Origin: a virus
IMG/VR virus record: IMGVR_UViG_3300037842_000514
Direction: 5' to 3' (one strand)
DNA: 53,870 bases
Below, piece by piece: positions 1 through 36,687 of this stretch. Made by a program: the position numbers and the translations under genes. The notes under the pieces are model-generated. The model had not been told where the DNA came from, made no database searches, and saw nothing but the letters and a program-made list of their open reading frames with translations. Within the stretch, counting starts at the first letter, position 1. Every line of letters starts with the position of its first letter.

Positions 1-1370
1 AATGTAAATCTCTTTCTAGGTTTCCAGTTTTTTAATGTTGAATCTATATCTCTAACAAAATTATGACACATGTGTTTTGACGACATCCCGCCATCGTCAG
101 ACAATACAAACTCTCTACCAGACAAACCTTTCGATTTTCGGAGATCATGCCCATCATCATACCATTCTTTTAAATTATCAGCTACTTCATCAAATCTACA
201 TCTATCATCAAAAATATATGGTGTTGGAACTGAGCCTTGCAATGACCTACATGAAGGCCACACTGGCTTAACCCATTCACCGCATGTTAAATCTGGGTTA
301 TTTTTCCACTTTGTATCATCATGTAATGTATGAACCCACTCATAATCATCTGACGTTAGGTATTTATCTTTAAATTTAAAACCGCATTGGTCTTGCATGC
401 CACCAGTTACGTTTACTATAATAGGTGTCCCCGCCATAAGACTTTCAGCTGTACCTAACCCAAACCCCTCATTAGAAGCCATATTGACTGTAACGTCTGC
501 TATATTATATAAGAAATTTAAATATTTTGTATCTAATTTCTGATGTGAGAAGATTACTTTACAATCTGGTGCCATTTCTCTAGCAACCTCAGGCAGGTCT
601 GTCCCATTCTTATCAATTGGTTGTGTGTGCATAATTAAAGCGCATTTGGAAGACTGTTCTGGTGTTAGTTGATCGCAGAATGATTTGTATGCTAAAATAA
701 TATCACCTGGAACTTTTCGTCGTATATTTCTATTATTATAGAACATGACAAAATCTACATCAGGGCCTAAAACATTTGTTTTATATTTCTGAAATTCATC
801 CCACTCTTCATGAACTTCATCTAAAGGGTAAAATTGATCTTCGTTGATTCCATGTGGTGAATATGTTACCTGCCACGGTTCATATTCTGATCTAACATTT
901 TTTACAATATCAACAGTTTGTTTGGATATATTGAAAAGTGAATCCACTGAATCGTAATACTCCCTATTCCACATAGGCCATGGCATTGAATCCCATATAT
1001 TATAATACATGATTGGTATATGTTGTCTAATTTCATGCTCCATCTGAAACAACCACACCCAAAAGCGGGGATCAGTGTATATTAAAATACCATCAGGTTT
1101 ATCTACGTTGATCACTTCTCTCAACATTTCTTGATTACCATACCCACTTATAGGGTATATTTTTAAAGACGCATCAGTAATTCCCGTTTCCTTTCTAATA
1201 GCGTCATTCATATCAACTATCTTACCTTCTTCTGGATGTTTTATAGCACCACCCATTTGAACCCAATCGTATTTATGTAATGTGCCCATCACAAATTCTC
1301 TAGACATAGTTCCGACGCCACTGCTCATCCTCAAATCATCAGATAATAGTAATATTTTCTTTTTTGACAT
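1..1370 (-). CDS. GT-B fold glycosyltransferase (GT4-like), truncated at the window edge
   Basis: Absent from the ORF track because there is no stop in the window. Manual translation from ATG 1370: MSKKKILLLSDDLRMSSGVGTMSRE...NRNIRRKVPGD...ASNEGFGLGTAESLMAGTPII; EGFGL-x3-E is the GT4 nucleotide-sugar motif. Confidence 0.8.
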   Translation of the reverse strand, partial: MSKKKILLLSDDLRMSSGVGTMSREFVMGTLHKYDWVQMGGAIKHPEEGKIVDMNDAIRKETGITDASLKIYPISGYGNQEMLREVINVDKPDGILIYTDPRFWVWLFQMEHEIRQHIPIMYYNIWDSMPWPMWNREYYDSVDSLFNISKQTVDIVKNVRSEYEPWQVTYSPHGINEDQFYPLDEVHEEWDEFQKYKTNVLGPDVDFVMFYNNRNIRRKVPGDIILAYKSFCDQLTPEQSSKCALIMHTQPIDKNGTDLPEVAREMAPDCKVIFSHQKLDTKYLNFLYNIADVTVNMASNEGFGLGTAESLMAGTPIIVNVTGGMQDQCGFKFKDKYLTSDDYEWVHTLHDDTKWKNNPDLTCGEWVKPVWPSCRSLQGSVPTPYIFDDRCRFDEVADNLKEWYDDGHDLRKSKGLSGREFVLSDDGGMSSKHMCHNFVRDIDSTLKNWKPRKRFT

Positions 1371-6064: not shown

Positions 6065-6781
6065 TTAAGAATGACCCTGCTGAGCTACTAAATAGTACTC
6101 TGATTTAAAATCTCCAAGTTGAAAACTAATATGTAATAATCCACTATTAGATATTTCCATAATCCCTCCAGTACACTCTTTGTTAGCTATTAATATTTCC
6201 TTAAACAATTCAGCGTTAAATGATATATACTCAGGCATGTGTAATTCATTTGTGGATAACGCCATAGTAACTCTATTAGTGTTTGTTGTAGAATATCCAA
6301 TAACAAACTTCAAACCACCCCTATCCATTACAGTAAAAGTTGACGCATCTGGTAATGCTGATTTACCTCGTATAAAAGTTGTAGTAAAGTTATTAGTAAT
6401 ATCAACTCTAGTTTCAAACTCAGGCATATTCTTGAGTTTGGGTGGAGTTGAAATTATAGATAAATCTGCTAATATAAAATTGCAAGTTGAATTGGTATCA
6501 GAAAATGTTAGTGAGATGGGTTTGCCATTTATATCTACCACATCAATTTCCATAGAATTGTCAACTGTATTCAACAACCGTTGTAATTGACTAGTCGAGT
6601 AGACTCCAATATCTGCGTTACAAAACTTAAAATTATCAACTGACACGTTTCCTAGTAAAGATTTACTATCAGTAATAAATGACGTCGATAAAGTGTCACC
6701 TTTACATACCCATTTAACGCTATCAACATTCCCACCTAAATTGTACTTTACGATGAATTGTTCTAATTTATTTTTATCCAC
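6065..6781 (-). CDS. DNA sliding clamp (T4 gp45-like)
   Basis: Clamp-like sequence ending SEYYLVA; next to RFC. The ORF track starts at 6835, but GTG 6781, overlapping the upstream stop, is the more likely start. Confidence 0.75.
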   Translation of the reverse strand: MDKNKLEQFIVKYNLGGNVDSVKWVCKGDTLSTSFITDSKSLLGNVSVDNFKFCNADIGVYSTSQLQRLLNTVDNSMEIDVVDINGKPISLTFSDTNSTCNFILADLSIISTPPKLKNMPEFETRVDITNNFTTTFIRGKSALPDASTFTVMDRGGLKFVIGYSTTNTNRVTMALSTNELHMPEYISFNAELFKEILIANKECTGGIMEISNSGLLHISFQLGDFKSEYYLVAQQGHS

Positions 6782-14416: not shown

Positions 14417-15347
14417 TTAATTAGCGTAATCTTGATCATCGTTATCCCCAGCGATTGGTATTATCTCACAAGTGTCGTTATTACAAAACTTGTCGGGTTC
14501 AGCTTCTTCACCTTCAATACCGGCGAAGCTTAACTTTCCTAATTTCGAAAGCATTTTATTGTATTTTTTTTCATCAATTTCCTCATATGGCATTTGTCTA
14601 TAAGCCCCATACTCATGTCTCGGTAATAATGATATCCCTTTTAACTTGTATTGAAAATATTCAAGTACATGTGGTAGTTGTGTAGATTCAACTGCAGGAT
14701 TAAATGTTGCTGTACAACTTACTTGATTGTCTGCCCAATGTCTCTGTAAGAATGCTGCTAGGCTGAATTGTTCCCATATAGATAGTTCTCCTACAGTTCG
14801 AATTCCTTCACCAATATCAATTGGAACCTCAACAACTACTGTCGAATCTTCACTACCAAATGCTGGTTCTAAATTGTAGTTTGCTTTCTTTAACGACTCT
14901 ATCAATTCTGATTGTTTAGATAATCTCATTCGTCGTATATAAAATCTACTTTCCGGATAGTGCATTCCTGGAGTAGCTCCTACTAATAAACTAACAGTTC
15001 CAGAAGGTTTAATGCTACTCAACTTTATACTTCTTGGTACAGCTAACCAATCTGAGTACATCTTATCCCATTTCGTTAGCTCATTATACCCTTCTTCACA
15101 CCACGTTTTTAAAGAATCCAATCCCCTATTAGTAACAAATTGTGCTATACCACTCATCGATGTACCAATTCTTCTATTTCTCAGCATAACTCGATTGGTG
15201 TCAGGCCAGTGTGTTTTTCCTAATGTAACTGTTTTTGCATATAAGTATGCATACTTTAATGTCTTCTTATAATCTTCTAAGTCGTCGTGGTGGTGTGGGA
15301 AAGTTTCCACAAGACAACATAATTCATAAGATTCTAAACTTTGTTCG
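14417..15347 (-). CDS. nrdJ: class II ribonucleotide reductase, 3' exon (C-terminal part)
   Basis: Frame reads EQSLESYELCCLVETFP...RNRRIGTS...IKPSGTVSLL...C-terminal FCNNDTC; joins to 15523-15635 after intron removal. Confidence 0.9.
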
Positions 15348-15522
15348 CTTTTTACGGATTGTATCAGTAAACTTTCAATCTATAAGGTGGACTGTCGCAT
15401 CTTCATTAGAAGTTTCTCCGCTCAGTCTCTCACGCTGGCTTTACCCTTGCGCCCTGTCGGCGTTTCACTCGCCTTCCAAGTCAATCAGGAGAAATTTATA
15501 CTACCCCGGGACTTGTTAGTTA
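15348..15522 (-). mobile_element. 175-nt group I intron without an ORF
   Basis: The 5' exon ends in U (ACTGCCT) and pairs with IGS GGGTAGT (15500-15506) with a U.G wobble. P3 TTTCTCC/GGAGAAA; P7 GAGACTG/ACAGTC; P8 CTTC-TAAT-GAAG; terminal G. Removal restores the frame TGC CTC GAA CAA (C-L-E-Q). Confidence 0.85.
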
Positions 15523-15635
15523 AGGCAGTTGTGGATTAATATATTATTAGCCACAAAATTGTGATTATTTTCTACACTCAAATCGTATACGTCTTGATTT
15601 TTATCATGTAATATTGTTTTAAGCAATCTTCCCAT
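15523..15635 (-). CDS. split intein C-fragment (36 aa) plus the first extein codons of NrdJ
   Basis: MGRLLKTILHDKNQDVYDLSVENNHNFVANNILIHN/C with blocks F and G; GGAG RBS upstream; too short for the ORF track. Confidence 0.88.
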
Positions 15636-16668
15636 AAGATTTAATCTCCGTTAAATAATTGTTAATTGAACTAAAGTATTTTTCGATACTTTTTTTAGTA
15701 ATCCCAAAGGTTTTTGGAACAGCTTCAGTTTTATTTTTTCTCTCTATTATGATATTATTAATATCAGTAATCTCTTTTATGTTGTATAATTCAAGTAAAA
15801 CCCCATACTTTAACATTTTAGTTTTATATGAATTAATTGAACTATTTTTTGGTAATGGTTTTCGTGGTTTACCAATCAAATTATTGTATCTATTAGTGCA
15901 TCCATTCTTTTTACACGTTTTTCTATCGATATCGCTTACAATCCTGTATTCGAATACATCTCCACAAATAATACAATTAGATACTTTTATTGGATCAGTT
16001 ATATCCTTTCCTTCCCAAAATAATTTACTCTCTTCCTTGCGTTGTGCTGATATTATCTCCCGCCTTTTCATACCATCTGGTGTATTATAAAAAGCACGTA
16101 TAGATTTGCTAAGTCTATCAGTATATTTTTTATCAGATGCCCGTTCGGCTGTTTTTTTTCCAATTTTAAGTTTAGTTTCATCTGAAGATGTCGTGCCGTA
16201 TCTTGGATTGTTTTTACCTCTCATATCCACAGTTTTATGGTTTTTAATAGAAGCTTCAATCCATTCTTTAACACCATTTTCAAGTTTATATTTTTTAACT
16301 ATTTTGCTAATGTGTTTATCCCACACTACCAAATACCGTATTCCGATATTTCCAAACAATTTATTGTATTTATAATAATAATCCATAGCTTCTTTTTTAG
16401 AGCTTTTGACTTCTATAATTGTTCTAATTTTATCATTAACAATATGAAAAAAATCAGGCTTGTAACTTTTACCATCAAATTCGTATATTTTACTTTCATA
16501 TAAAAATGACATATTAGCTATATCCAACCATTTAGCAATAACAAATTCACATTTACTGCGTAAATAATATTTTTTATTATCTTTTGTTGTATAATACCCG
16601 ACATAACTTCTATGATTAGTATCACCTCTCTTAATTTTCCCATGTTTTTGTTCACAATATGTTTTCAT
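15619..16668 (-). mobile_element. free-standing homing endonuclease (TnsA-like PD-(D/E)XK with NUMOD3 and Zn-finger) between the intein halves
   Basis: LRSKCE...YE...YKPDF...IIEVKS; GKNNPRYG..SDETKLKIG; CIICG...C...C. Confidence 0.75.
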
Positions 16669-16701
16669 AATTCATCTCTTTTTAGTGGTTGTTTATCTAA
16701 T

Positions 16702-16710
16702 AATAAATAT
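16702..16710 (-). promoter_or_regulatory. putative late-promoter motif ATATTTATT before the endonuclease gene
   Basis: Same motif recurs 15-45 nt before starts at 22138, 37008, 40611 and 48317. Confidence 0.45.
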
Positions 16711-16746
16711 AATAGAATTAAAAAATAAACACTAAAATTAAAAGAA

Positions 16747-18141
16747 TTATGTTATTATTTTAATATTATCATCTTCAGTTAAATCTTTAGCTTCTACATA
16801 CCCCTTATTGGTTGTATAGACTTTATGGTCAGGGGTACAAGTAAGTTTATAGATATTTCCATCTTCTTCAATCTCTAACGTCATGATAGAAACATCCTTT
16901 CTGCTTAACCAAGCGTTAGTAATAACATTGTATTCTAATGATAGAGTATTTTCATTAAAAGTTAATGCTTTAATTTCTTCACCGTTTTTTACCAGTTCTA
17001 CAACTTCTTCAACGGTTAATTTACCTTTATCAGTATTAACTAATGTATCACCAACTACACATGGATTTCCACCAGCTACCCTATGGTCTTTATTATCACC
17101 ACCATTTTTCATACGAGAATACTTTCTCATATTATCTAACCACGCAATTCCAGGTTCACCATTATCTACTATTCGTTTACATATATCAGTATAATCCATT
17201 CCTAATTCAGCGAATACTGAGTTATTGGAAGTCCATCCGTAATCTTCCCTATGAGGGTTTTTCTTGTAATTCTTTAGATCTAAATATTCTTCTGAGTGTG
17301 GATCTCCAAATACAATCTCAGCTGTGCGCCTTACATTACCGGCCACTACACACTTACCAATCAAATTCATGATGTCCACAATTGTAGTTACTGTAATTGG
17401 TTGTCCTATATTGATGTCTAATATTTTTTTAATTTTATTATTAATTTCCTCTAATGGATCAGGACCACTACTAATTCCCCCAAATCCTTTAATGGGTTCT
17501 CCCAACCCTCTGATTAACGAGTAATCAAATTCTACATCTACAGTTCCTACGAAGTAGCTATCCAACACCATCTTTACAGATTCTACCCAACCTTCTCGTG
17601 TATCTGGAATCCGAAATACATTGGATGTTTGTGATAAGTTTAATTTGGGACCTTTAATAACAATCTCACCAGCACCTTTTGTATCGAAACCGACACCCAC
17701 TCCTAACATAGAAGCGTCCATTAGGAATGTGAATGGTTTAGATAAATCTTCCTTAATAGTCTTAGTTGAAACGAACGCACAATTGTTAAGTGCTGCGTAT
17801 AATTTCTTTTCTTCTGTTATAGCAGTTCCCATTGCCCATAACCCACGACCGGGTGGAAGGAATTTCATACTCCACATTCTCTCGTACATTTCTTGAGCTG
17901 AGTTTTGAGCTTGCCATGGATTCCAACCTAATTGGTGCTGTTCAATCCACTGCTTTTGCATATTGTAAGTACCTTCTACAACTCGTCTAATAGTTTCCCA
18001 CCATCTCTCATTTTTACCATTATCTTTGATACGGGAATATGTTCTCATATAAACTAACTCACCAAGACCATTGAAACCGAATGGTGGTTTTTTTCTTTTA
18101 TATTTATTTATAAATGATTCCGTTAAAACAAACTTATCCAT
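16747..18141 (-). CDS. nrdJ: class II (AdoCbl) ribonucleotide reductase N-terminal part fused to a split intein N-fragment (104 aa, 16750-17061)
   Basis: RTYSR, FLPPGRGLW, LNNCAF, GNVRRTAEI, GGNP|CVVGDT (block A), TCTPDHKVYT (block B), then a stop. Confidence 0.92.
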   Translation of the reverse strand: MDKFVLTESFINKYKRKKPPFGFNGLGELVYMRTYSRIKDNGKNERWWETIRRVVEGTYNMQKQWIEQHQLGWNPWQAQNSAQEMYERMWSMKFLPPGRGLWAMGTAITEEKKLYAALNNCAFVSTKTIKEDLSKPFTFLMDASMLGVGVGFDTKGAGEIVIKGPKLNLSQTSNVFRIPDTREGWVESVKMVLDSYFVGTVDVEFDYSLIRGLGEPIKGFGGISSGPDPLEEINNKIKKILDINIGQPITVTTIVDIMNLIGKCVVAGNVRRTAEIVFGDPHSEEYLDLKNYKKNPHREDYGWTSNNSVFAELGMDYTDICKRIVDNGEPGIAWLDNMRKYSRMKNGGDNKDHRVAGGNPCVVGDTLVNTDKGKLTVEEVVELVKNGEEIKALTFNENTLSLEYNVITNAWLSRKDVSIMTLEIEEDGNIYKLTCTPDHKVYTTNKGYVEAKDLTEDDNIKIIT

Positions 18142-19705: not shown

Positions 19706-20762
19706 TATATTCTTTAGCTAATCTATTTAACTTAGACCACGATTGATTTAACCAAGATTCGAAATTGGGTATACCATTAAACATTCTATCCTTCATGAAT
19801 TCTAATTGGAAATGTGGTTTATTTAAGATAGGAACCTTCCCTCTAACTATATCATTGATCTTCAATTTTGCATTATTTGATATGTCAACTTCATGTAACT
19901 GCATTAATTTGTAATTTAGTTCTAATTGATCTTTAGAAGCTACAACATTTCTAAATATTTTCAATAAATCTTTATTCTTTTCTGAAAACTCTAAGAGGTC
20001 TTTGATATTAAATGCATTATTCTCATCTAAAATACCCGGAAATCTTTTCTTAATTGTTTTAAATCCTGCACCTTGTACTCCAGGAATATTATCTGATTTA
20101 TCACCTTCCATCACTCTACCCATCAGAAAATTTATGCATGGGATGCCATACTCTTCAAATAAATTGTCAGGCTTATATAACTTTTTCTTAGTAGGGCTCC
20201 ATACACTAATTCTATCATCTACCAATTGTAAAAAATCTTTATCTGAAGACATTAATATAATATTATTATTTGATTTGTTTAAAATTTGTTTAGTGATGTA
20301 AGCCATAGTATCGTCAGCTTCTATATTATCGATAGCTATAGTGCTTATAGGTAAAAACTCTAAATACTTTGATACCATCGATAATTGCATCATCATATTT
20401 TGGCGCTCATCAGCATGAGAATTAAAATTTGATACTCTATTGAGTCTAGATTTAACTTTTCTGTTAGCTTTATAATCTGGATACAATTTACGGCGACGGA
20501 CGGACCCACCCTTACCATCAAATACGATGATACATCGAGTGGGTCCTAATAATTTCACAGCATAACCAACTGATTTTAAAAAACCTACTATTCCCCCAAT
20601 GTGAACTCCATCTTCATTGAGAGTAGGTATAACGCTAAATACTCGTATAAAAGTATTTAATCCATCTATAATCAGTACTTTATCATTAATGTCCCCTGTG
20701 TCGGACTTCCCGCCATGTTTTTTTATTTCTTCTAATATCGATAAATATTTATCATTACTCAT
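19695..20762 (-). CDS. 5'-3' exonuclease/flap endonuclease (T4 RNase H-like)
   Basis: IIDGLN, FDGKGG, YKANR, EADD, SSDKDF, GDKSDNIPGV.G.G.KT. Confidence 0.92.
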   Translation of the reverse strand: MSNDKYLSILEEIKKHGGKSDTGDINDKVLIIDGLNTFIRVFSVIPTLNEDGVHIGGIVGFLKSVGYAVKLLGPTRCIIVFDGKGGSVRRRKLYPDYKANRKVKSRLNRVSNFNSHADERQNMMMQLSMVSKYLEFLPISTIAIDNIEADDTMAYITKQILNKSNNNIILMSSDKDFLQLVDDRISVWSPTKKKLYKPDNLFEEYGIPCINFLMGRVMEGDKSDNIPGVQGAGFKTIKKRFPGILDENNAFNIKDLLEFSEKNKDLLKIFRNVVASKDQLELNYKLMQLHEVDISNNAKLKINDIVRGKVPILNKPHFQLEFMKDRMFNGIPNFESWLNQSWSKLNRLAKEYNGS

Positions 20763-21186
20763 CGCCGGTCACATCTTCAGTAAATTGAACATCATCTATA
20801 CCCAAATTTGCAGTTTTATATTGCAACACCATTTTATCACATATCAAATCATAGAGATAGTTTTTTAGTCCATCAACTTCAGCTAGTTTTAATTCAAACT
20901 CCTTTGATAGAAATTTCACATCTTTACCATTGTAGTTTACAGTATACCACGCTCCACCTTGTTTGATCAAATTATGCTCTTTTAGCACTGTCAACCATCC
21001 ACCGTAATTATCAATTCCTTTATCAAAGTACATATCATAATCTGCATGACGTAGTGGTGGGCCTAATCTATTTTTAATAACTTGAGCTCGACATTTCATT
21101 CCTAGTACGTTCTTCTTAGCGGTATCTTTAATTTGACCCATATTTTTTAATCTAAGTCTAGTAGATGCGTGGAATGGTAATGCTTT
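20755..21186 (-). CDS. recA: RecA/UvsX recombinase, 3' exon
   Basis: KALPFHASTRLRL...KNRLGPP...GAWY; the upstream ATG in the ORF track (21237) lies inside the intron. Confidence 0.88.
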   Translation of the reverse strand, partial: KALPFHASTRLRLKNMGQIKDTAKKNVLGMKCRAQVIKNRLGPPLRHADYDMYFDKGIDNYGGWLTVLKEHNLIKQGGAWYTVNYNGKDVKFLSKEFELKLAEVDGLKNYLYDLICDKMVLQYKTANLGIDDVQFTEDVTGDE

Positions 21187-22379
21187 CAATTTTGTTATCG
21201 TATAATCATTTAAATTATACATCTTATAATTTCTCATAAGTTCGGACTATATCTTTACCAAAATTTTGAATTAATTTTAATACATTCTTCTCTGTTATAT
21301 CAGATCCAAATATACGACATACGTTATATCCACATTCTTTTATTTCATTCAAACGAATATTATCTTTATCCCATACTGATTGAGCTGTTACTACTCTATT
21401 TCCTGGATATTTAATTAATTCATCTGAATCGTATTTCTTTGGATTTGCATGCCAATAATCACCATCCACTTCAAATACTAAATTGAAGTCTGGTAAATAA
21501 AAATCGACATAATATGCTTTTATTTTATCGTATTGATGTATATAGTTTATACCGCTATCTTCCAAAATACTTTTTACTTTTAATTCAATTTTAGTATTTC
21601 TAGAACCGCCAGGTATTTTATTTTTATATTTCCAATTCTGTAATCTTAGATCAGCTTCATCTTTTCCATATTTTTCAAACCACCTTTGCCAATTAGATTT
21701 TCCATAATGGTGATGAGCTGAACCTGTAATTGAACTCCACATTATACTTTCTGGATGATCGTTTACGTATTCTTTCATCACTTTACTGTGATTTTTTCTA
21801 TATTCAGCACTTTGAACTGCTTTTTTTACAGCATCCTTTCTTTTCTGAGAATGTCTACTTATGTCGTTCATTTTACGGCAATGGTTTTTATTACCATCAG
21901 AATAAATCCATTTTGCAAATTTATCGAAATGTGCGTTGGAAATCATTTTTGAATTTGGAAATGATAACTTATATTCATCAGTTGTCATTTTATGTTTAGT
22001 TTTTAAATGTGTATTTGTGATTGATTTAAAATCTGTATTACACAATTCACACTTTATTAATTCACTATTTTGGTATTCAGCGCTCGTGTTATTTTCATCT
22101 TCGTTATACATTTTACTCTCCATTATATCTTTATACATATAAATATAATGAAATGGGAAAACTTTACCCAATTTTTGTATATTAGTTTGAAGATTACTCA
22201 TATTAGTCTCTGAACCTTATTCTCATCACTGAGAGTCTTGGCTGCTGATTGTCCAATCCTACTTTTTTCAAACCGTCACGATTGTCATTACTAACTGCGT
22301 TGTGGTAAGTTAGGCTATCAGGAGTTTCCAGCAATTCACCGAATGTTTTATAGTGGAGGCAAAACATTACTTACGCAAT
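21187..22379 (-). mobile_element. group I intron (1193 nt) in recA carrying a homing endonuclease gene
   Basis: Exon AGTGGTGGT pairs with IGS GCCTCCACT (22352-22360). P GAATTGCTGGAAA, Q AATCAGCAGCCAAG, R GGTTCAGAGACTA (22204-22216), S AAGATATAGTCC (21244-21255), terminal G at 21187. Splicing yields TTSGG|KALPFH. Confidence 0.92.
21224..22111 (-). CDS. intron-encoded Vsr-like (EDxHD) homing endonuclease with an N-terminal C2H2-like finger
   Basis: CELC...H...H; YYVDFY...FEVDGDYWH...DKD. GGAG RBS before ATG 22111 (the ORF stays open up to 22201). Confidence 0.8.
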   Translation of the reverse strand: MYNEDENNTSAEYQNSELIKCELCNTDFKSITNTHLKTKHKMTTDEYKLSFPNSKMISNAHFDKFAKWIYSDGNKNHCRKMNDISRHSQKRKDAVKKAVQSAEYRKNHSKVMKEYVNDHPESIMWSSITGSAHHHYGKSNWQRWFEKYGKDEADLRLQNWKYKNKIPGGSRNTKIELKVKSILEDSGINYIHQYDKIKAYYVDFYLPDFNLVFEVDGDYWHANPKKYDSDELIKYPGNRVVTAQSVWDKDNIRLNEIKECGYNVCRIFGSDITEKNVLKLIQNFGKDIVRTYEKL

Positions 22380-22751
22380 ACCACCACTCGTTGTGTTATG
22401 ATTTACATATCCATTTGCAATATAATTTTCATTATCTTCTACGGATATATCAACAACATTTATTTCATCGTCCACTTTTTTAGCATCTGGATGATTTTTT
22501 AGATGCATGTAGCTATTATCACTACATTTTACTCTATGATTTCCTGTACCTTTTAAATCTCCCAATTTATAATGAGATTTAACTTTAGGTTTAACAAGAA
22601 AATCAAGAATTTGTTTATACTCAACATCACCATCATTATTGACTGATTCTACTTCCAATCCCATACCACTTAAATCTAATGATTCTGGATTATTGTAGTT
22701 CATATCAAATAATTCAGTAAGTTGAGCCATACTAACTGTTTTTTCTATCAT
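22380..22751 (-). CDS. atypically split intein C-fragment (119 aa, 22395-22751) plus a 5-codon RecA exon TTSGG
   Basis: Block B TGNH, block F VVDISVEDNENYIANG, block G HN/T. Confidence 0.87.
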
Positions 22752-23514
22752 TGGTATTCTCCTGTGTCATTTGTTGTAATTTATTATGATATTCACCAAA
22801 AAAAGGTGAATCTTCATCGTATCGTATCTTAATATTAGTTGTTTCAGGATCAACACACCATGGATCTCCAAAGGACACACCTAATTTCTGACGTAGTTGA
22901 TTAGTAAACACTAAAGCTATTTTCTGCCGTCCTATCATTTGAGTAATCTTTCTTAACGCTTTTGAGATAATAATAGCCTTTGCTGTAGCCCAACCATCTT
23001 TATCAAAATCTGCTTCTAATTCTACTTTAGTAGTTGCTGCCGCTAACGAATCCACTAAAATTGTAACTAATCTATCTTTATCGGATTCTCTAACTTTAGT
23101 AACGATTTCTTCAATAGCACTAAATATATCTTCTACAGTTTCCAAATGTAGATAGAGCATATTAGACACATCTACCCCAATAGCTTCCAAAAACTGTTTG
23201 CTAACTGACGTTTCAGTATCCACATAAACTGCCACTCCACCCTTTTTCTGCGTTTCAGTTAGAATATGTGCTCCTAATAGAGATTTTCCACTGGATTCTA
23301 ATCCAGTAATTTCAGTGATTCTACCTACTGCAATACCACCATCTTTCCGATTCGATATTGCTAAATCTAACATCGATGATCCTGTTGAGATAAAATCGCT
23401 AATATCTGTAGGTGTACTATCTGTTCCATCTAGAAAGTATGCAACTTTCATATCTTTAAATTGTTTATTTATATTATCAGCCAAGACATTAGCTAATTCG
23501 TCTCTTATAGACAT
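22732..23514 (-). CDS. recA: RecA/UvsX N-terminal part fused to a short intein N-fragment (41 aa, 22735-22857)
   Basis: GLESSGKS, ILVDSLA, FTNQLRQK.GV.FGDPW|CVDPETT (intein block A), then a stop. Confidence 0.92.
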   Translation of the reverse strand: MSIRDELANVLADNINKQFKDMKVAYFLDGTDSTPTDISDFISTGSSMLDLAISNRKDGGIAVGRITEITGLESSGKSLLGAHILTETQKKGGVAVYVDTETSVSKQFLEAIGVDVSNMLYLHLETVEDIFSAIEEIVTKVRESDKDRLVTILVDSLAAATTKVELEADFDKDGWATAKAIIISKALRKITQMIGRQKIALVFTNQLRQKLGVSFGDPWCVDPETTNIKIRYDEDSPFFGEYHNKLQQMTQENTNDRKNS

Positions 23515-34524: not shown

Positions 34525-36687
34525 TTAATTTTGACCTTGGCTAACCATTGCGCCATATAATGTTTGATTACCAGCTCCCTGACCACCTATACGTTTTGCT
34601 AATGCTCCATTTGGGCCTAGTGCTGTTAGAAGTGCATCTAATTTTTTATTAGTAGTTTCAAGATCAAACGTACCCACAGTTTCACCTTTATGAACTTTTG
34701 CTAAGCCAGTCTCCTCTATAGTACCCCCACCAGATAATGATGGCGTGGAAGTTGGAATTGGTGTGGTTTCGACATCAGATCCACCCCCAAATCCTAAAAA
34801 CGATCCAACTGAAGATATAGTTTCTTTAATAGCTTTTATAGCTTCCCACGCTAAGAATAATGGCCAAAATGCTAGCATTAATGCTTTTTTAGCTAAATTC
34901 CCAAATCCTCCGAAGTGTTTAGCGAGTAACACCACACCCGCTATTAAAGCCCCAACCCCTTCTTTAATAGCTTTTATAGCTTCCCACGCTAAGACTAATG
35001 GCCAAAATGCTAGCATTAATGCTTTTTTAGCTAAATTCCCAAATCCTCCTAAGTGTTTAGCGAGTAACACCACACCCGCTATTAAAGCCACAACCCCTAA
35101 TACAATCCATGTTATTGGATTTGCTAGAAGTGAAGCTGTAAGCCCCCACGATGCTGCAACCAAGCCCCCCATTGTACTCAGTAATGCCCACGCCCCTGCC
35201 ACCATCATAGGTCCAAATACAACAGCTAATATTGCACCAATCATAGGTAAATATGATACTATTACAGACAGTGCATCTGCTATATATTCCCATAATAATT
35301 GACTTGCCTTTTGTCCAGCATTCATGTTGTTCAATTTTTCCTGATTAGCAACCATCTTAGATAATTCACCTACACCAACACCTATCGATTCAGCTAACGC
35401 TCTTTTTTGGAGTACATTGAGTCTATTAAATTCTTCCACACTACCCATCTGACTCAAAATATCAGCAACTGCACCTTCTATATCGTCATTTAACGCTAAC
35501 CTACGAGCTGCATCATAATTTAAATTTCTACCAATCAACATTGAAGCTTCCATTTGTTTCTCTATTGAAGATTCGAAATCCAACAATGAATCTGCGATTT
35601 TAGTTGAAGTGCCTAGATTCACTCCTAACATTCTTGCTTGAACAGCAGCTCGTGCCATATTTTCACCACCATCTTTAGCGTAAGATGCAAAGGTGTCCAT
35701 ATCACCTGCCATATCTTCTAATACAGCTGCAGGAGCAACACCATTAGCTCGGGCTAATTCACTAGTCATTCTAATAGTACTAAATACTGCTTCATCACTA
35801 CTAGCGCCCATTGCACCCATACTAGCAAGTAATTTTGCACTCGTATCCGCTGACACTCCATACTGAAAGCTTAACATCTTCATGGATATTAAATTTTTAG
35901 TAGTTGCTTTTTCTAACGAACCAACATTATCTAATATGGCCTTAGCTTCGTCTCCAAATAATGCTATACCAGTACCCATTTGATTAAACGCTAATCCAGT
36001 CGACTGCGCGAAATCAAATGCGTTCTTAGCAAGTAATGCAAAGGCGCCTGCTATAGCTAATCCAGCACCACGCATTAGTACCATACGACCTTCACTCGTT
36101 TCTAATAAGTCCCCCCATCTTTTTACTTTGTTCTTTATTTTTTCAATGGCACCAAACATTGATTTATAAGCGTCATCATATTCATCCAAGATATCTTTAT
36201 TATTGCTTTGAAATTCGTTAATGTCGCCCATAACATTTAATTGTTCTTTTAATGGATTTAATTGTTCCGCTAATTGTAACCCTTTAAAACCTTCTGCAGC
36301 TGCTATCGCGTCTTCTATGGCTACTCTTTGTTGCAACTGATCTGTTAAACTAAGCTCACCTGATATAGCGTCGTGTTGAAGCTTTAATTGTTGTTGTTGA
36401 ATTTCAGCTGCAGCTACTCGACTTTTATCACCTAATAATAAATTCTCAGTTATTTGACGTTCTAGATTTCTTTGATTGAAAGTACTTTCTACATCGGATT
36501 GTTGGCGGTCTGATAAACTTCTTTTGGCTTTTAATTGATTTCTATACATGCCAAGCAGTTCTTTATTTGAGTTGGACAGTTTACCTTCTTCCATCGCTAC
36601 TTGTTTAATAGCTGCTACTCTATCTTGTAAAGATTTAATTATCTCTTTATTAGTTTTTATATGATCTTTATCTGATTTTGTAGGCAT
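34525..36687 (-). CDS. tail tape measure protein
   Basis: 720 aa, helical, Ala/Gln-rich, hydrophobic C-terminal segments; located between the chaperone and baseplate genes. Confidence 0.75.
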   Translation of the reverse strand: MPTKSDKDHIKTNKEIIKSLQDRVAAIKQVAMEEGKLSNSNKELLGMYRNQLKAKRSLSDRQQSDVESTFNQRNLERQITENLLLGDKSRVAAAEIQQQQLKLQHDAISGELSLTDQLQQRVAIEDAIAAAEGFKGLQLAEQLNPLKEQLNVMGDINEFQSNNKDILDEYDDAYKSMFGAIEKIKNKVKRWGDLLETSEGRMVLMRGAGLAIAGAFALLAKNAFDFAQSTGLAFNQMGTGIALFGDEAKAILDNVGSLEKATTKNLISMKMLSFQYGVSADTSAKLLASMGAMGASSDEAVFSTIRMTSELARANGVAPAAVLEDMAGDMDTFASYAKDGGENMARAAVQARMLGVNLGTSTKIADSLLDFESSIEKQMEASMLIGRNLNYDAARRLALNDDIEGAVADILSQMGSVEEFNRLNVLQKRALAESIGVGVGELSKMVANQEKLNNMNAGQKASQLLWEYIADALSVIVSYLPMIGAILAVVFGPMMVAGAWALLSTMGGLVAASWGLTASLLANPITWIVLGVVALIAGVVLLAKHLGGFGNLAKKALMLAFWPLVLAWEAIKAIKEGVGALIAGVVLLAKHFGGFGNLAKKALMLAFWPLFLAWEAIKAIKETISSVGSFLGFGGGSDVETTPIPTSTPSLSGGGTIEETGLAKVHKGETVGTFDLETTNKKLDALLTALGPNGALAKRIGGQGAGNQTLYGAMVSQGQN
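34823..35098. repeat. near-perfect tandem duplication, 2 x 138 nt (46 aa), in the tape measure gene
   Basis: GV.ALIAGVVLLAKH.GGFGNLAKKALMLAFWPL.LAWEAIKAIKE occurs twice, with DNA nearly identical. Confidence 0.92.

Follow-up and report, generated by a model that had tools for sequence, protein, structure and literature searches.

Layout of the interrupted nrdJ locus

The 53,870-nucleotide (nt) viral stretch that we analyzed, IMG/VR virus record IMGVR_UViG_3300037842_000514 (hereafter, the whole stretch is called the window), carries an nrdJ gene for a ribonucleotide reductase (RNR) that is interrupted by a split intein, a free-standing endonuclease gene, and a short intervening RNA that we predict to be a group I-type intron. 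The pieces are listed in Table 1, in the order in which they are read. The N-terminal intein half (IntN) continues the N-extein and ends in a stop codon, and the C-terminal half (IntC) begins at an ATG that lies within the endonuclease open reading frame (ORF), giving a 17-nt overlap, with a GGAG located 10 nt upstream of the IntC start.

Table 1. Features of the nrdJ locus in the window (aa, amino acids)
Feature	Coordinates	Strand	Description
nrdJ exon 1, N-extein	17062..18141	minus	360 aa, terminus ...HRVAGGNP
IntN	16750..17061; stop 16747..16749	minus	104 aa, CVVGD...KIIT, same frame as N-extein
Spacer from IntN to endonuclease ORF			78 nt
Free-standing gene, predicted homing endonuclease	15619..16668	minus	349 aa, intact
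IntC	15528..15635	minus	36 aa, blocks F/G (DVYDLSVENNHNFVANNILIHN), ends LIHN
Micro-exon TGCCT	15523..15527	minus	Cys+1 codon and first 2 bases of the Leu codon
Predicted group I-type intron	15348..15522	minus	175 nt, ORF-less; first base T, last base G
nrdJ exon 2, C-extein	14417..15347	minus	309 aa to stop; base 1 completes the Leu codon, then EQSLESYELCCLVE

Both exteins are parts of an RNR. The N-extein matches the Pfam domains PF17975 RNR_Alpha (E value of 9.5e-44) and PF21995 RNR-II_ins_dom (3.4e-14) and is 73-83% identical to uninterrupted NrdJ proteins in IMG/VR, and the C-extein is 70-94% identical to the C-terminal parts of its homologs. On the PHROG 367 (RNR) profile, the N piece covers positions 30-389 and the C piece positions 390-696; the two abut, and therefore the break is clean. 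No terminator-like sites were found between the nrdJ pieces.

If the intervening RNA were retained, translation of the IntC ORF (15635..15516) would comprise 39 codons, that is, the 36 aa ending in NHNFVANNILIHN followed by Cys-Leu-Asn, before reaching a TAA at 15516..15518. In the exon 2 frame, a TGA occurs 7 codons upstream of GAA-CAA, and no ATG, GTG, or TTG lies in between, so that the conserved EQSLESYELCC is not translatable alone. A first-pass annotation, made from the letters of the DNA, had proposed exactly this order (NrdJ-N plus a 104-aa IntN, a stop, an endonuclease, a 36-aa IntC, TGCCT, an intron, and NrdJ-C) and had predicted a stop immediately after IntC-Cys-Leu-Asn in the absence of splicing. 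Our analysis confirms the layout to the base and locates the predicted stop at the TAA given above.

The break falls within the RNR active site

Among 80 IMG/VR relatives of the N piece, 72 have an uninterrupted gene in which the sequences corresponding to the two exteins lie exactly two codons (6 nt) apart. These two codons and their surroundings read GGNPCLEQSLES in 62 relatives and GGNPCLEQTLES in 5, and Cys-Leu is thus present in 67 (GGNPCLEQ). Joining TGCCT (15527-15523) to C15347, with removal of 15522-15348, yields a gapless match to the homolog junction. We rejected a 5' splice site directly behind the T of TGC, the usual site in this RNA family; it needs a 3' end other than G and gives NPCEQ, one residue short of all 72 homologs.

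An uninterrupted homolog (L002) aligned with the Lactobacillus leichmannii enzyme RTPR (PDB 1L1L) with an E value of 1.5e-98, placing its GGNPCLEQ opposite GTNPCGEI of RTPR, so that its Cys falls on C408 and its Glu on E410. C408 is the established thiyl-radical Cys of RTPR. The junction GGNP|C-L, the identity of the +1 Cys with the thiyl-radical Cys, and the class II assignment had all been claimed in the first-pass annotation, and they agree, respectively, with the 67 of 72 relatives, with the alignment of the homolog to RTPR C408, and with the two Pfam matches of the N-extein. Judged by these matches and by the NPC-x-E loop of the reconstructed active site, the nrdJ product is a class II (B12-dependent, monomeric RTPR-type) RNR.

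The split intein and the endonuclease between its halves

Residues 6-101 of IntN align with the NrdJ-1 intein (PDB 8UBS; phmmer E value of 5.3e-20). IntN starts with Cys1 (CVVGD) and carries the block B motif CTPDH, and in the intein alignment both C1 and T76-P77-D78-H79 are invariant. Its score against Pfam Intein_splicing (30.3 bits) is under the cutoff of 35.8 because IntN is only half of the domain. IntC corresponds to positions 129-155 of the 155 in the same profile (PF14890) and aligns with the C-terminal 22-30 residues of a large number of solved inteins, Spl DnaX (7cfv; 2.5e-5) being one. The catalytic features of an intein (Cys1, TxxH, His-Asn, and Cys+1) are all present, and both halves are under purifying selection, with ratios of nonsynonymous to synonymous substitution rates (dN/dS) of 0.068 for IntN and 0.05 for IntC when the window is compared with the L168 lineage. 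The two halves, encoded on separate ORFs, are predicted to form a canonical class 1 split intein that would splice in trans. These matches, together with the nuclease ORF in between, bear out the earlier view of split-intein halves flanking a free-standing endonuclease. The NrdJ-1 intein is a homolog of the window IntN but is inserted at NPC|S, whereas the window intein is at NP|C, one residue N-terminal; the latter position is the "NrdA point" of Dassa 2009 (PMC2677866).

The 349-aa protein encoded between the halves is a predicted homing endonuclease of the PD-(D/E)xK type, with an N-terminal nuclease domain and a C-terminal domain, the last 75 residues, that resembles a helix-turn-helix (HTH). 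The residues E58, P71-D72, and E86-V-K88 are invariant in 7 homologs, including distant copies from related fractured RNR genes. The AlphaFold (AF2) model is confident solely for residues ~21-145, with predicted local distance difference test (pLDDT) values of 72-91 in the N-domain. Its best superposition in the PDB was on TnsA (1t0f; Z of 8.2, 122 residues aligned), and because a Z of ~8 is commonly seen with this search tool, the fold assignment leans also on the motif. VRR-NUC, Vsr, and I-Bth0305I came next, with Z of 5.8-6.2 (5.8 for both Vsr and I-Bth0305I). The protein also matches PHROG 29037 ("endonuclease") with an E value of 3.8e-4, and a search of 5.8 billion clustered proteins yielded no more than 3 homologs. 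In the comparison used for the intein halves, its dN/dS is 0.133.

The intervening RNA has the architecture of a group I core

The exon sequence ACUGCCU pairs with an internal guide sequence (IGS) at 15500-15507 (GGGGTAGT; GGGGUAGU in RNA) to form the helix P1. U15523, the last base of the micro-exon, contributes the U to the splice-site U·G pair, and P1 also takes in the last two bases of the intein Asn codon. The core (P3-P7') spans 15388-15497, is followed by P9, and the terminal G of the intron is 15348. The order P3-P4-P5-P6-P7-P3'-P8-P7', with a P3/P7 pseudoknot, is that of a group I core, and the strands AGAGACUG and ACAGUCC are similar to the classical R and S elements.

We drew the helices P3, P4, P5, P6/6a, P7, and P8 from the window sequence and tested them on 38 distinct cores. 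In these, 97.2% of cells are paired, versus 38-45% with the partners slid, and 18 of the 32 pairs are changed on both sides; P3, P5, P6, and P8 covary, as does one pair of P7, the helix crossing P3. The cores were gathered by means of an invariant 17-mer that spans the end of P3 and P4, and the columns of that stretch are therefore uninformative. When 46 pairs were scored across five compound copies, 99.1% of the cells proved to be standard, and P1 is 100% paired; compensatory changes occur in P3, P5, and P9, and a U/C change in the IGS still leaves a pair with G. The intron is 90-92% identical between lineages, compared with 64-83% for the flanking coding DNA. Our own covariance model, R1, scored the window intron at 115 bits (E value of 1e-26); it detected no second member of the RNA family in the window and none beside 80 related inteins. 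Collectively, we predict that the 175-nt insert is a group I-type intron belonging to a phage RNA family with at least 38 distinct cores.

Relatives of the RNA in other phages

When the intron was compared by blastn with 50,697 phage records, the only match was in Roseobacter phage CRP-118 (83.8% over 74 nt). There, an unannotated 172-nt intron-like insert (OR420741, approx. 35054-35225; L001:3973-4144) separates the RNR coding sequences gp44 and gp45; it follows base 1 of the thiyl-Cys codon, and the exons join as GTNP-C-SEIILRPYQFCNL. The introns of the CRP-118 type share with the window intron the core, the RNR hot spot, the lack of an ORF, and a size of ~170-175 nt. They differ in following the first base of the Cys codon (AAUCCGU|), in using the guide GCGGAUUU, and in residing in genes without an intein, whereas the window intron is 4 nt further 3' and its different guide matches AAC-UGC-CU.

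The 17-mer CCTGATTGACTTGGAAG is present in 86 IMG/VR stretches (L082-L167), most of which continue with the same ~110-nt core; at its gathering threshold, the Rfam model RF00028 misses this family. Its members interrupt several genes, including the Cys codon of RNR, a ...QNQDP... gene, and the "P22 coat protein" of MW202674. In L110, two introns recognized by RF00028 (3943-4226 and 6702-6949; 74 and 113 bits) accompany a 17-mer family member at 6226, so that the RNR region of L110 holds several introns.

Lineages and allele states of the compound locus

The compound layout was found in four sequence lineages (about 14 loci), drawn from JGI, ENA, Logan, and IMG/VR assemblies, and the intron is always 5 nt after the His-Asn of the intein. 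L171, L252, and L259 are near-identical to the window; the endonuclease is 81% identical in L168/L169, and its C-terminus is 64% identical in L262/L263. L090, L093, and L253 show 56% identity, and in these the endonuclease ORF is broken by stops. Two long-read "pilon" contigs with frameshifts (L260 and L261) were excluded as assembly noise. In all four lineages, the exteins are full length and stop-free, with 70-94% amino-acid identity.

Further interruptions were seen in some of these genes. L090, L093, and L253 have a second split intein, without an endonuclease, at AGNVRR|T. At the same position, L252 (2245-7091) and L259 (190-5391) have a split intein accompanied by a 316-aa endonuclease (DUF7487) of its own, and their nrdJ is consequently interrupted three times, giving four polypeptide-coding pieces and one RNA splice; DNA polymerase B of L259 is also in several pieces. 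In L170 (1348-1809), an IntC of the L262 lineage lacks the terminal Asn (…NNVLAH) and runs into methyltransferase-like …FDTIYHEHFFYFS…; we take this locus to be an assembly chimera or else the relic of a rearrangement.

Within the NrdJ family of the window, the site occurs empty (at least 72 loci), with the compound block, or with an unrelated contiguous intein of ~343 aa that has no intron (at least 14 loci, namely L024, L025, and 12 of 14 search matches); L044 has a further contiguous intein at the same site. An NrdJ-1-like split intein without the intron, or the intron alone, was never found at this site of the family. More distant RNRs (L182, L174, L183, and L186) do include fractured genes that have related inteins and endonucleases and no intron.

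A filled and an empty allele differ by the whole block

The compound-bearing metagenome contig L252 can be compared with five contigs whose site is empty (L069-L073). The two alleles are 99.98% identical over 4807 nt upstream, including the Cys codon, and 98.9% identical downstream from about 25 nt into exon 2; between these flanks, L252 has 1737 nt versus 28 nt in L069-L073. The block in L252 is 99-100% identical to IntN, endonuclease, IntC, and intron of the window, and exon 2 of L252 is likewise identical to that of the window over its first ~60 nt. The N-extein of L252, by contrast, is of the L070 type up to the junction, where the window DNA is only 77% identical. Co-conversion in L252 is therefore asymmetric, covering at most 3 nt on the left and ~60 nt on the right. 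A candidate target at the empty site of the L070 type is ...AATCCCTGTCTGGAACAA....

The L252/L070 pair has the footprint expected of homing and indicates that the intein, the endonuclease gene, and the intron were transferred together. The compound block appears to be inherited, and to move horizontally between phages, as one unit.

Proposed expression and mobility, and competing explanations

We consider it very likely that a composite selfish element, made up of a split intein, an endonuclease gene, and an intron, has invaded nrdJ at the codons that are most conserved, and that the gene is expressed in two steps, both of which would be needed before the active-site loop can form. Conservation, purifying selection, and signs of recent mobility point to functional ribozyme, intein, and endonuclease activities. 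We propose the following order of events. The pieces would be co-transcribed; the ribozyme would excise itself from the transcript and so join IntC-Cys-Leu to the 309-aa C-extein, the spliced exons reading ...AACTGCCT|CGAACAAAG.... NrdJ-N-IntN and IntC-NrdJ-C would then associate, and trans-splicing, with the thiyl Cys as the +1 nucleophile, would yield GGNP-C-L-EQ and a ligated NrdJ of ~77 kDa containing the peptide GGNPCLEQSLESYELC. Unspliced RNA would give only IntC-CLN, a decoy that could react with the N half and produce a dead, truncated protein; since the N half could be consumed in this way, efficient RNA splicing should be selected. The block presumably moves by endonuclease-triggered gene conversion of empty nrdJ alleles.

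We lean slightly toward a broader proposal, in which this is a three-partner composite element. A single endonuclease gene would drive homing not only of a protein-splicing element but also of an RNA-splicing one, together forming an indivisible cassette; the intron would have been retargeted by 4 nt from the usual RNR Cys-codon site of its family, with a P1 made partly of intein codons, and RNA splicing would gate trans-splicing. In this proposal, the design is a recurrent one, also seen in recA/uvsX and in L176/L177 (see below), rather than a one-off.

It is conceivable that the 175 nt simply stay in the RNA, in which case NrdJ would consist of three non-covalent pieces or of an N piece bearing CLN together with a separately translated C piece. 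PMC3653736 summarizes unspliced split RNRs that function, namely Aeh1 nrdA, split by mobE into NrdA-a and NrdA-b, and phiYS40 nrdJ-a/b, and in the window a GTG at 15310 opens a 297-aa ORF of the kind annotated by gene callers. However, this ORF begins 12 codons into exon 2 and loses EQSLESYELCCLV, with the Glu and Cys corresponding to E410 and C419 of RTPR; in every lineage, the frame upstream of it is open and conserved as far as the 3' splice site itself but offers no start codon. Moreover, no other DNA of the locus is as conserved as the 175-nt spacer, which changes by compensatory substitutions, and we regard its retention as highly improbable. We likewise give very little credence to the idea of a decaying pseudogene, in which selfish elements have killed nrdJ and the phage uses the host RNR. 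The broken endonuclease ORFs of L090 and L093 would fit such decay, and degeneration has been proposed for some intein-riddled phage RNRs (PMC3653736), but the exteins are intact in all four lineages (see above), the intein halves have dN/dS values of 0.05-0.07, and the catalytic residues of the intein and of the RNR active site are all kept. In L090, decay is confined to the endonuclease and has spared intein, intron, and exteins, a state expected toward the end of a homing cycle.

Whether the intervening RNA removes itself is a separate matter, and several results weigh against the ribozyme, and in part against the wider interpretation. RF00028 gave no match at an E value of ≤1 over 4.5 kb, at ≤10 over 231 nt, or at the gathering threshold over the whole window, nor did it match at 12 other loci of the RNA family; it does match the unrelated introns in L110 at 74-113 bits. 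We read this miss as a sensitivity limit of the curated model, and because of it the group I assignment is based on the architecture and the covariation. The group I intron of the first-pass annotation holds on both of these grounds, with the refinement that the curated Rfam model does not match it. R1 did not match the self-splicing introns of T4 and Pf-WMP3 and reached that of Twort only at an E value of 0.47, so there is no sequence bridge to a validated ribozyme. P2 is missing from this very short intron, a P10 is not obvious, and the single-sequence minimum free energy (MFE) folding of the intron is no better than that of shuffles (z of 0.15). Given the missing P2, the lack of a clear P10, and the lack of a match to validated introns, the predicted ribozyme may require a protein cofactor. 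Beyond the RNA itself, no IntC-NrdJ-C fusion protein, as would be derived from spliced cDNA, was present among the best 120 of 1486 matches, a weak negative because 1486 proteins passed the threshold and most of the data are DNA assemblies. Finally, the filled/empty pair speaks for en-bloc transfer but not for a particular enzyme as its cause.

The small size, the absence of P2 and a clear P10, the ordinary folding energy, and the lack of matches to Rfam and to validated ribozymes would also suit a non-autocatalytic removal, either of a reduced group I-like RNA that needs a phage or host maturase or chaperone or by some other route. We consider this unlikely. The full topology of the catalytic core, including the P3/P7 pseudoknot, is kept with covariation; the R- and S-like elements, the splice-site U·G, and the terminal G are present; and the CRP-118 relative, in a cultured phage, sits in an RNR at the same Cys codon. 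That relative has 172 nt, and a small size is thus normal for the RNA family.

Relation to known systems

Dassa et al. 2009 (PMC2677866) describe genes that are fractured by split inteins enclosing a free-standing endonuclease gene (NrdJ-1, NrdA-1..7, and gp41-1); the first-pass annotation had named NrdJ-1 and gp41-1 as known examples. The window nrdJ is a fractured gene as defined in that paper: as in the genes described there, a phage-type essential gene is broken at an intein, with an endonuclease ORF on the same strand between IntN and IntC. PMC2677866 mentions group I introns in recA only, where they host Vsr-like endonucleases, and no intron within a fractured gene. The window nrdJ differs in that a group I-type intron follows the intein at a distance of 5 nt and leaves the IntC ORF with just two extein codons, and the endonuclease differs in the classical PD..ExK motif, the TnsA-like best fold, and the small number of homologs.

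An intron and an intein also coincide in other RNR genes. The RIR gene of T. erythraeum reportedly holds four inteins and three group II introns (Liu et al. 2003), and bnrdE of the Bacillus subtilis phage SPbeta is reportedly the subject of "Lightning strikes twice" (Derbyshire & Belfort 1998) and of Lazarevic 1998. The inteins of SPbeta and of Brochothrix phage A9 reportedly splice in cis, at separate sites. According to PMC3653736, SPbeta bnrdE and A9 nrdE each combine an intron and an intein, the latter being coding sequence inside a single RNR gene and unsplit. Common to these genes and the window are the need for both RNA and protein splicing to make one RNR and the targeting of conserved active-site codons. 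In the window, by contrast, the intein is split, the intron is 5 nt away, P1 includes intein codons, and the block appears to be one mobile unit.

The en-bloc transfer indicated by the L252/L070 pair is reminiscent of trans-homing and collaborative homing, as in the mobilization of the nrdB intron by T4 mobE (PMC2790892) and in the pairing of the free-standing F-CphI with an ORF-less psbA intron (Zeng, Bonocora & Shub 2009, cited in PMC3984707). Unlike in mobE and F-CphI, the endonuclease gene of the window is nested in a split intein, which makes a protein-splicing element the third partner. The window intron is not needed for protection of the site, since the intein already interrupts it. 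In full-text searches of the literature, no description of a split intein with an intron directly behind it was found. As far as we have found, fractured genes, phage group I introns, and the coincidence of intron and intein in RNR genes were known separately, and what is new is an IntC parted from its extein by a putative ribozyme 5 nt away.

In the arrangement that we propose, the codon of one catalytic residue, the thiyl Cys, would be the last full codon of the micro-exon, part of the ribozyme P1, and the source of the trans-splicing nucleophile. The filled/empty pair provides a testable example of three selfish elements traveling as one cassette and would extend the concept of "collaborative homing." In addition, the locus offers new split inteins of the NrdJ-1 family with Cys+1 and a minimal native C-extein context, a rare TnsA-like predicted homing endonuclease with a defined candidate target, and a group I-type RNA family of ~172-175 nt; catalogues seeded from the Rfam model would not hold this 17-mer family and have missed it.

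Similar arrangements at other sites

Two further loci resemble nrdJ of the window, and these parallels, if true, suggest that evolution has arrived at such a design repeatedly rather than by a single coincidence. In L176 (2451-4160) and L177, another type of NrdJ (SSNP|C...) contains a related split intein and endonuclease (45% identity). Its His-Asn is followed by Cys-Gly-Glu-stop, and ~240 nt of non-coding sequence precede EQFLWPYTSCNL. These ~240 nt have no Rfam match and no obvious group I core, and they probably represent an unrelated intron located 6 nt after the intein.

The second locus is recA/uvsX of the window itself (20755-23514, minus strand), whose design is like that of nrdJ. 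RecA-N, whose last residues are FGDPW, continues into a 41-aa IntN; a 119-aa IntC ends in NHN and is followed by a 15-nt exon (TTSGG) and then by a group I intron of ~1.15 kb. Rfam gives no match to this intron, either. It has a P1 (AGUGGUGGU/GCCUCCACU), a canonical R (GUUCAGAGACUAAUAUG) and S (AGAUAUAGUCCGAAC), and a terminal G before AAAGCATTACC (KALPFHAS). It also carries the ORF of a 325-aa Vsr/DUF559-like endonuclease (22201-21224).

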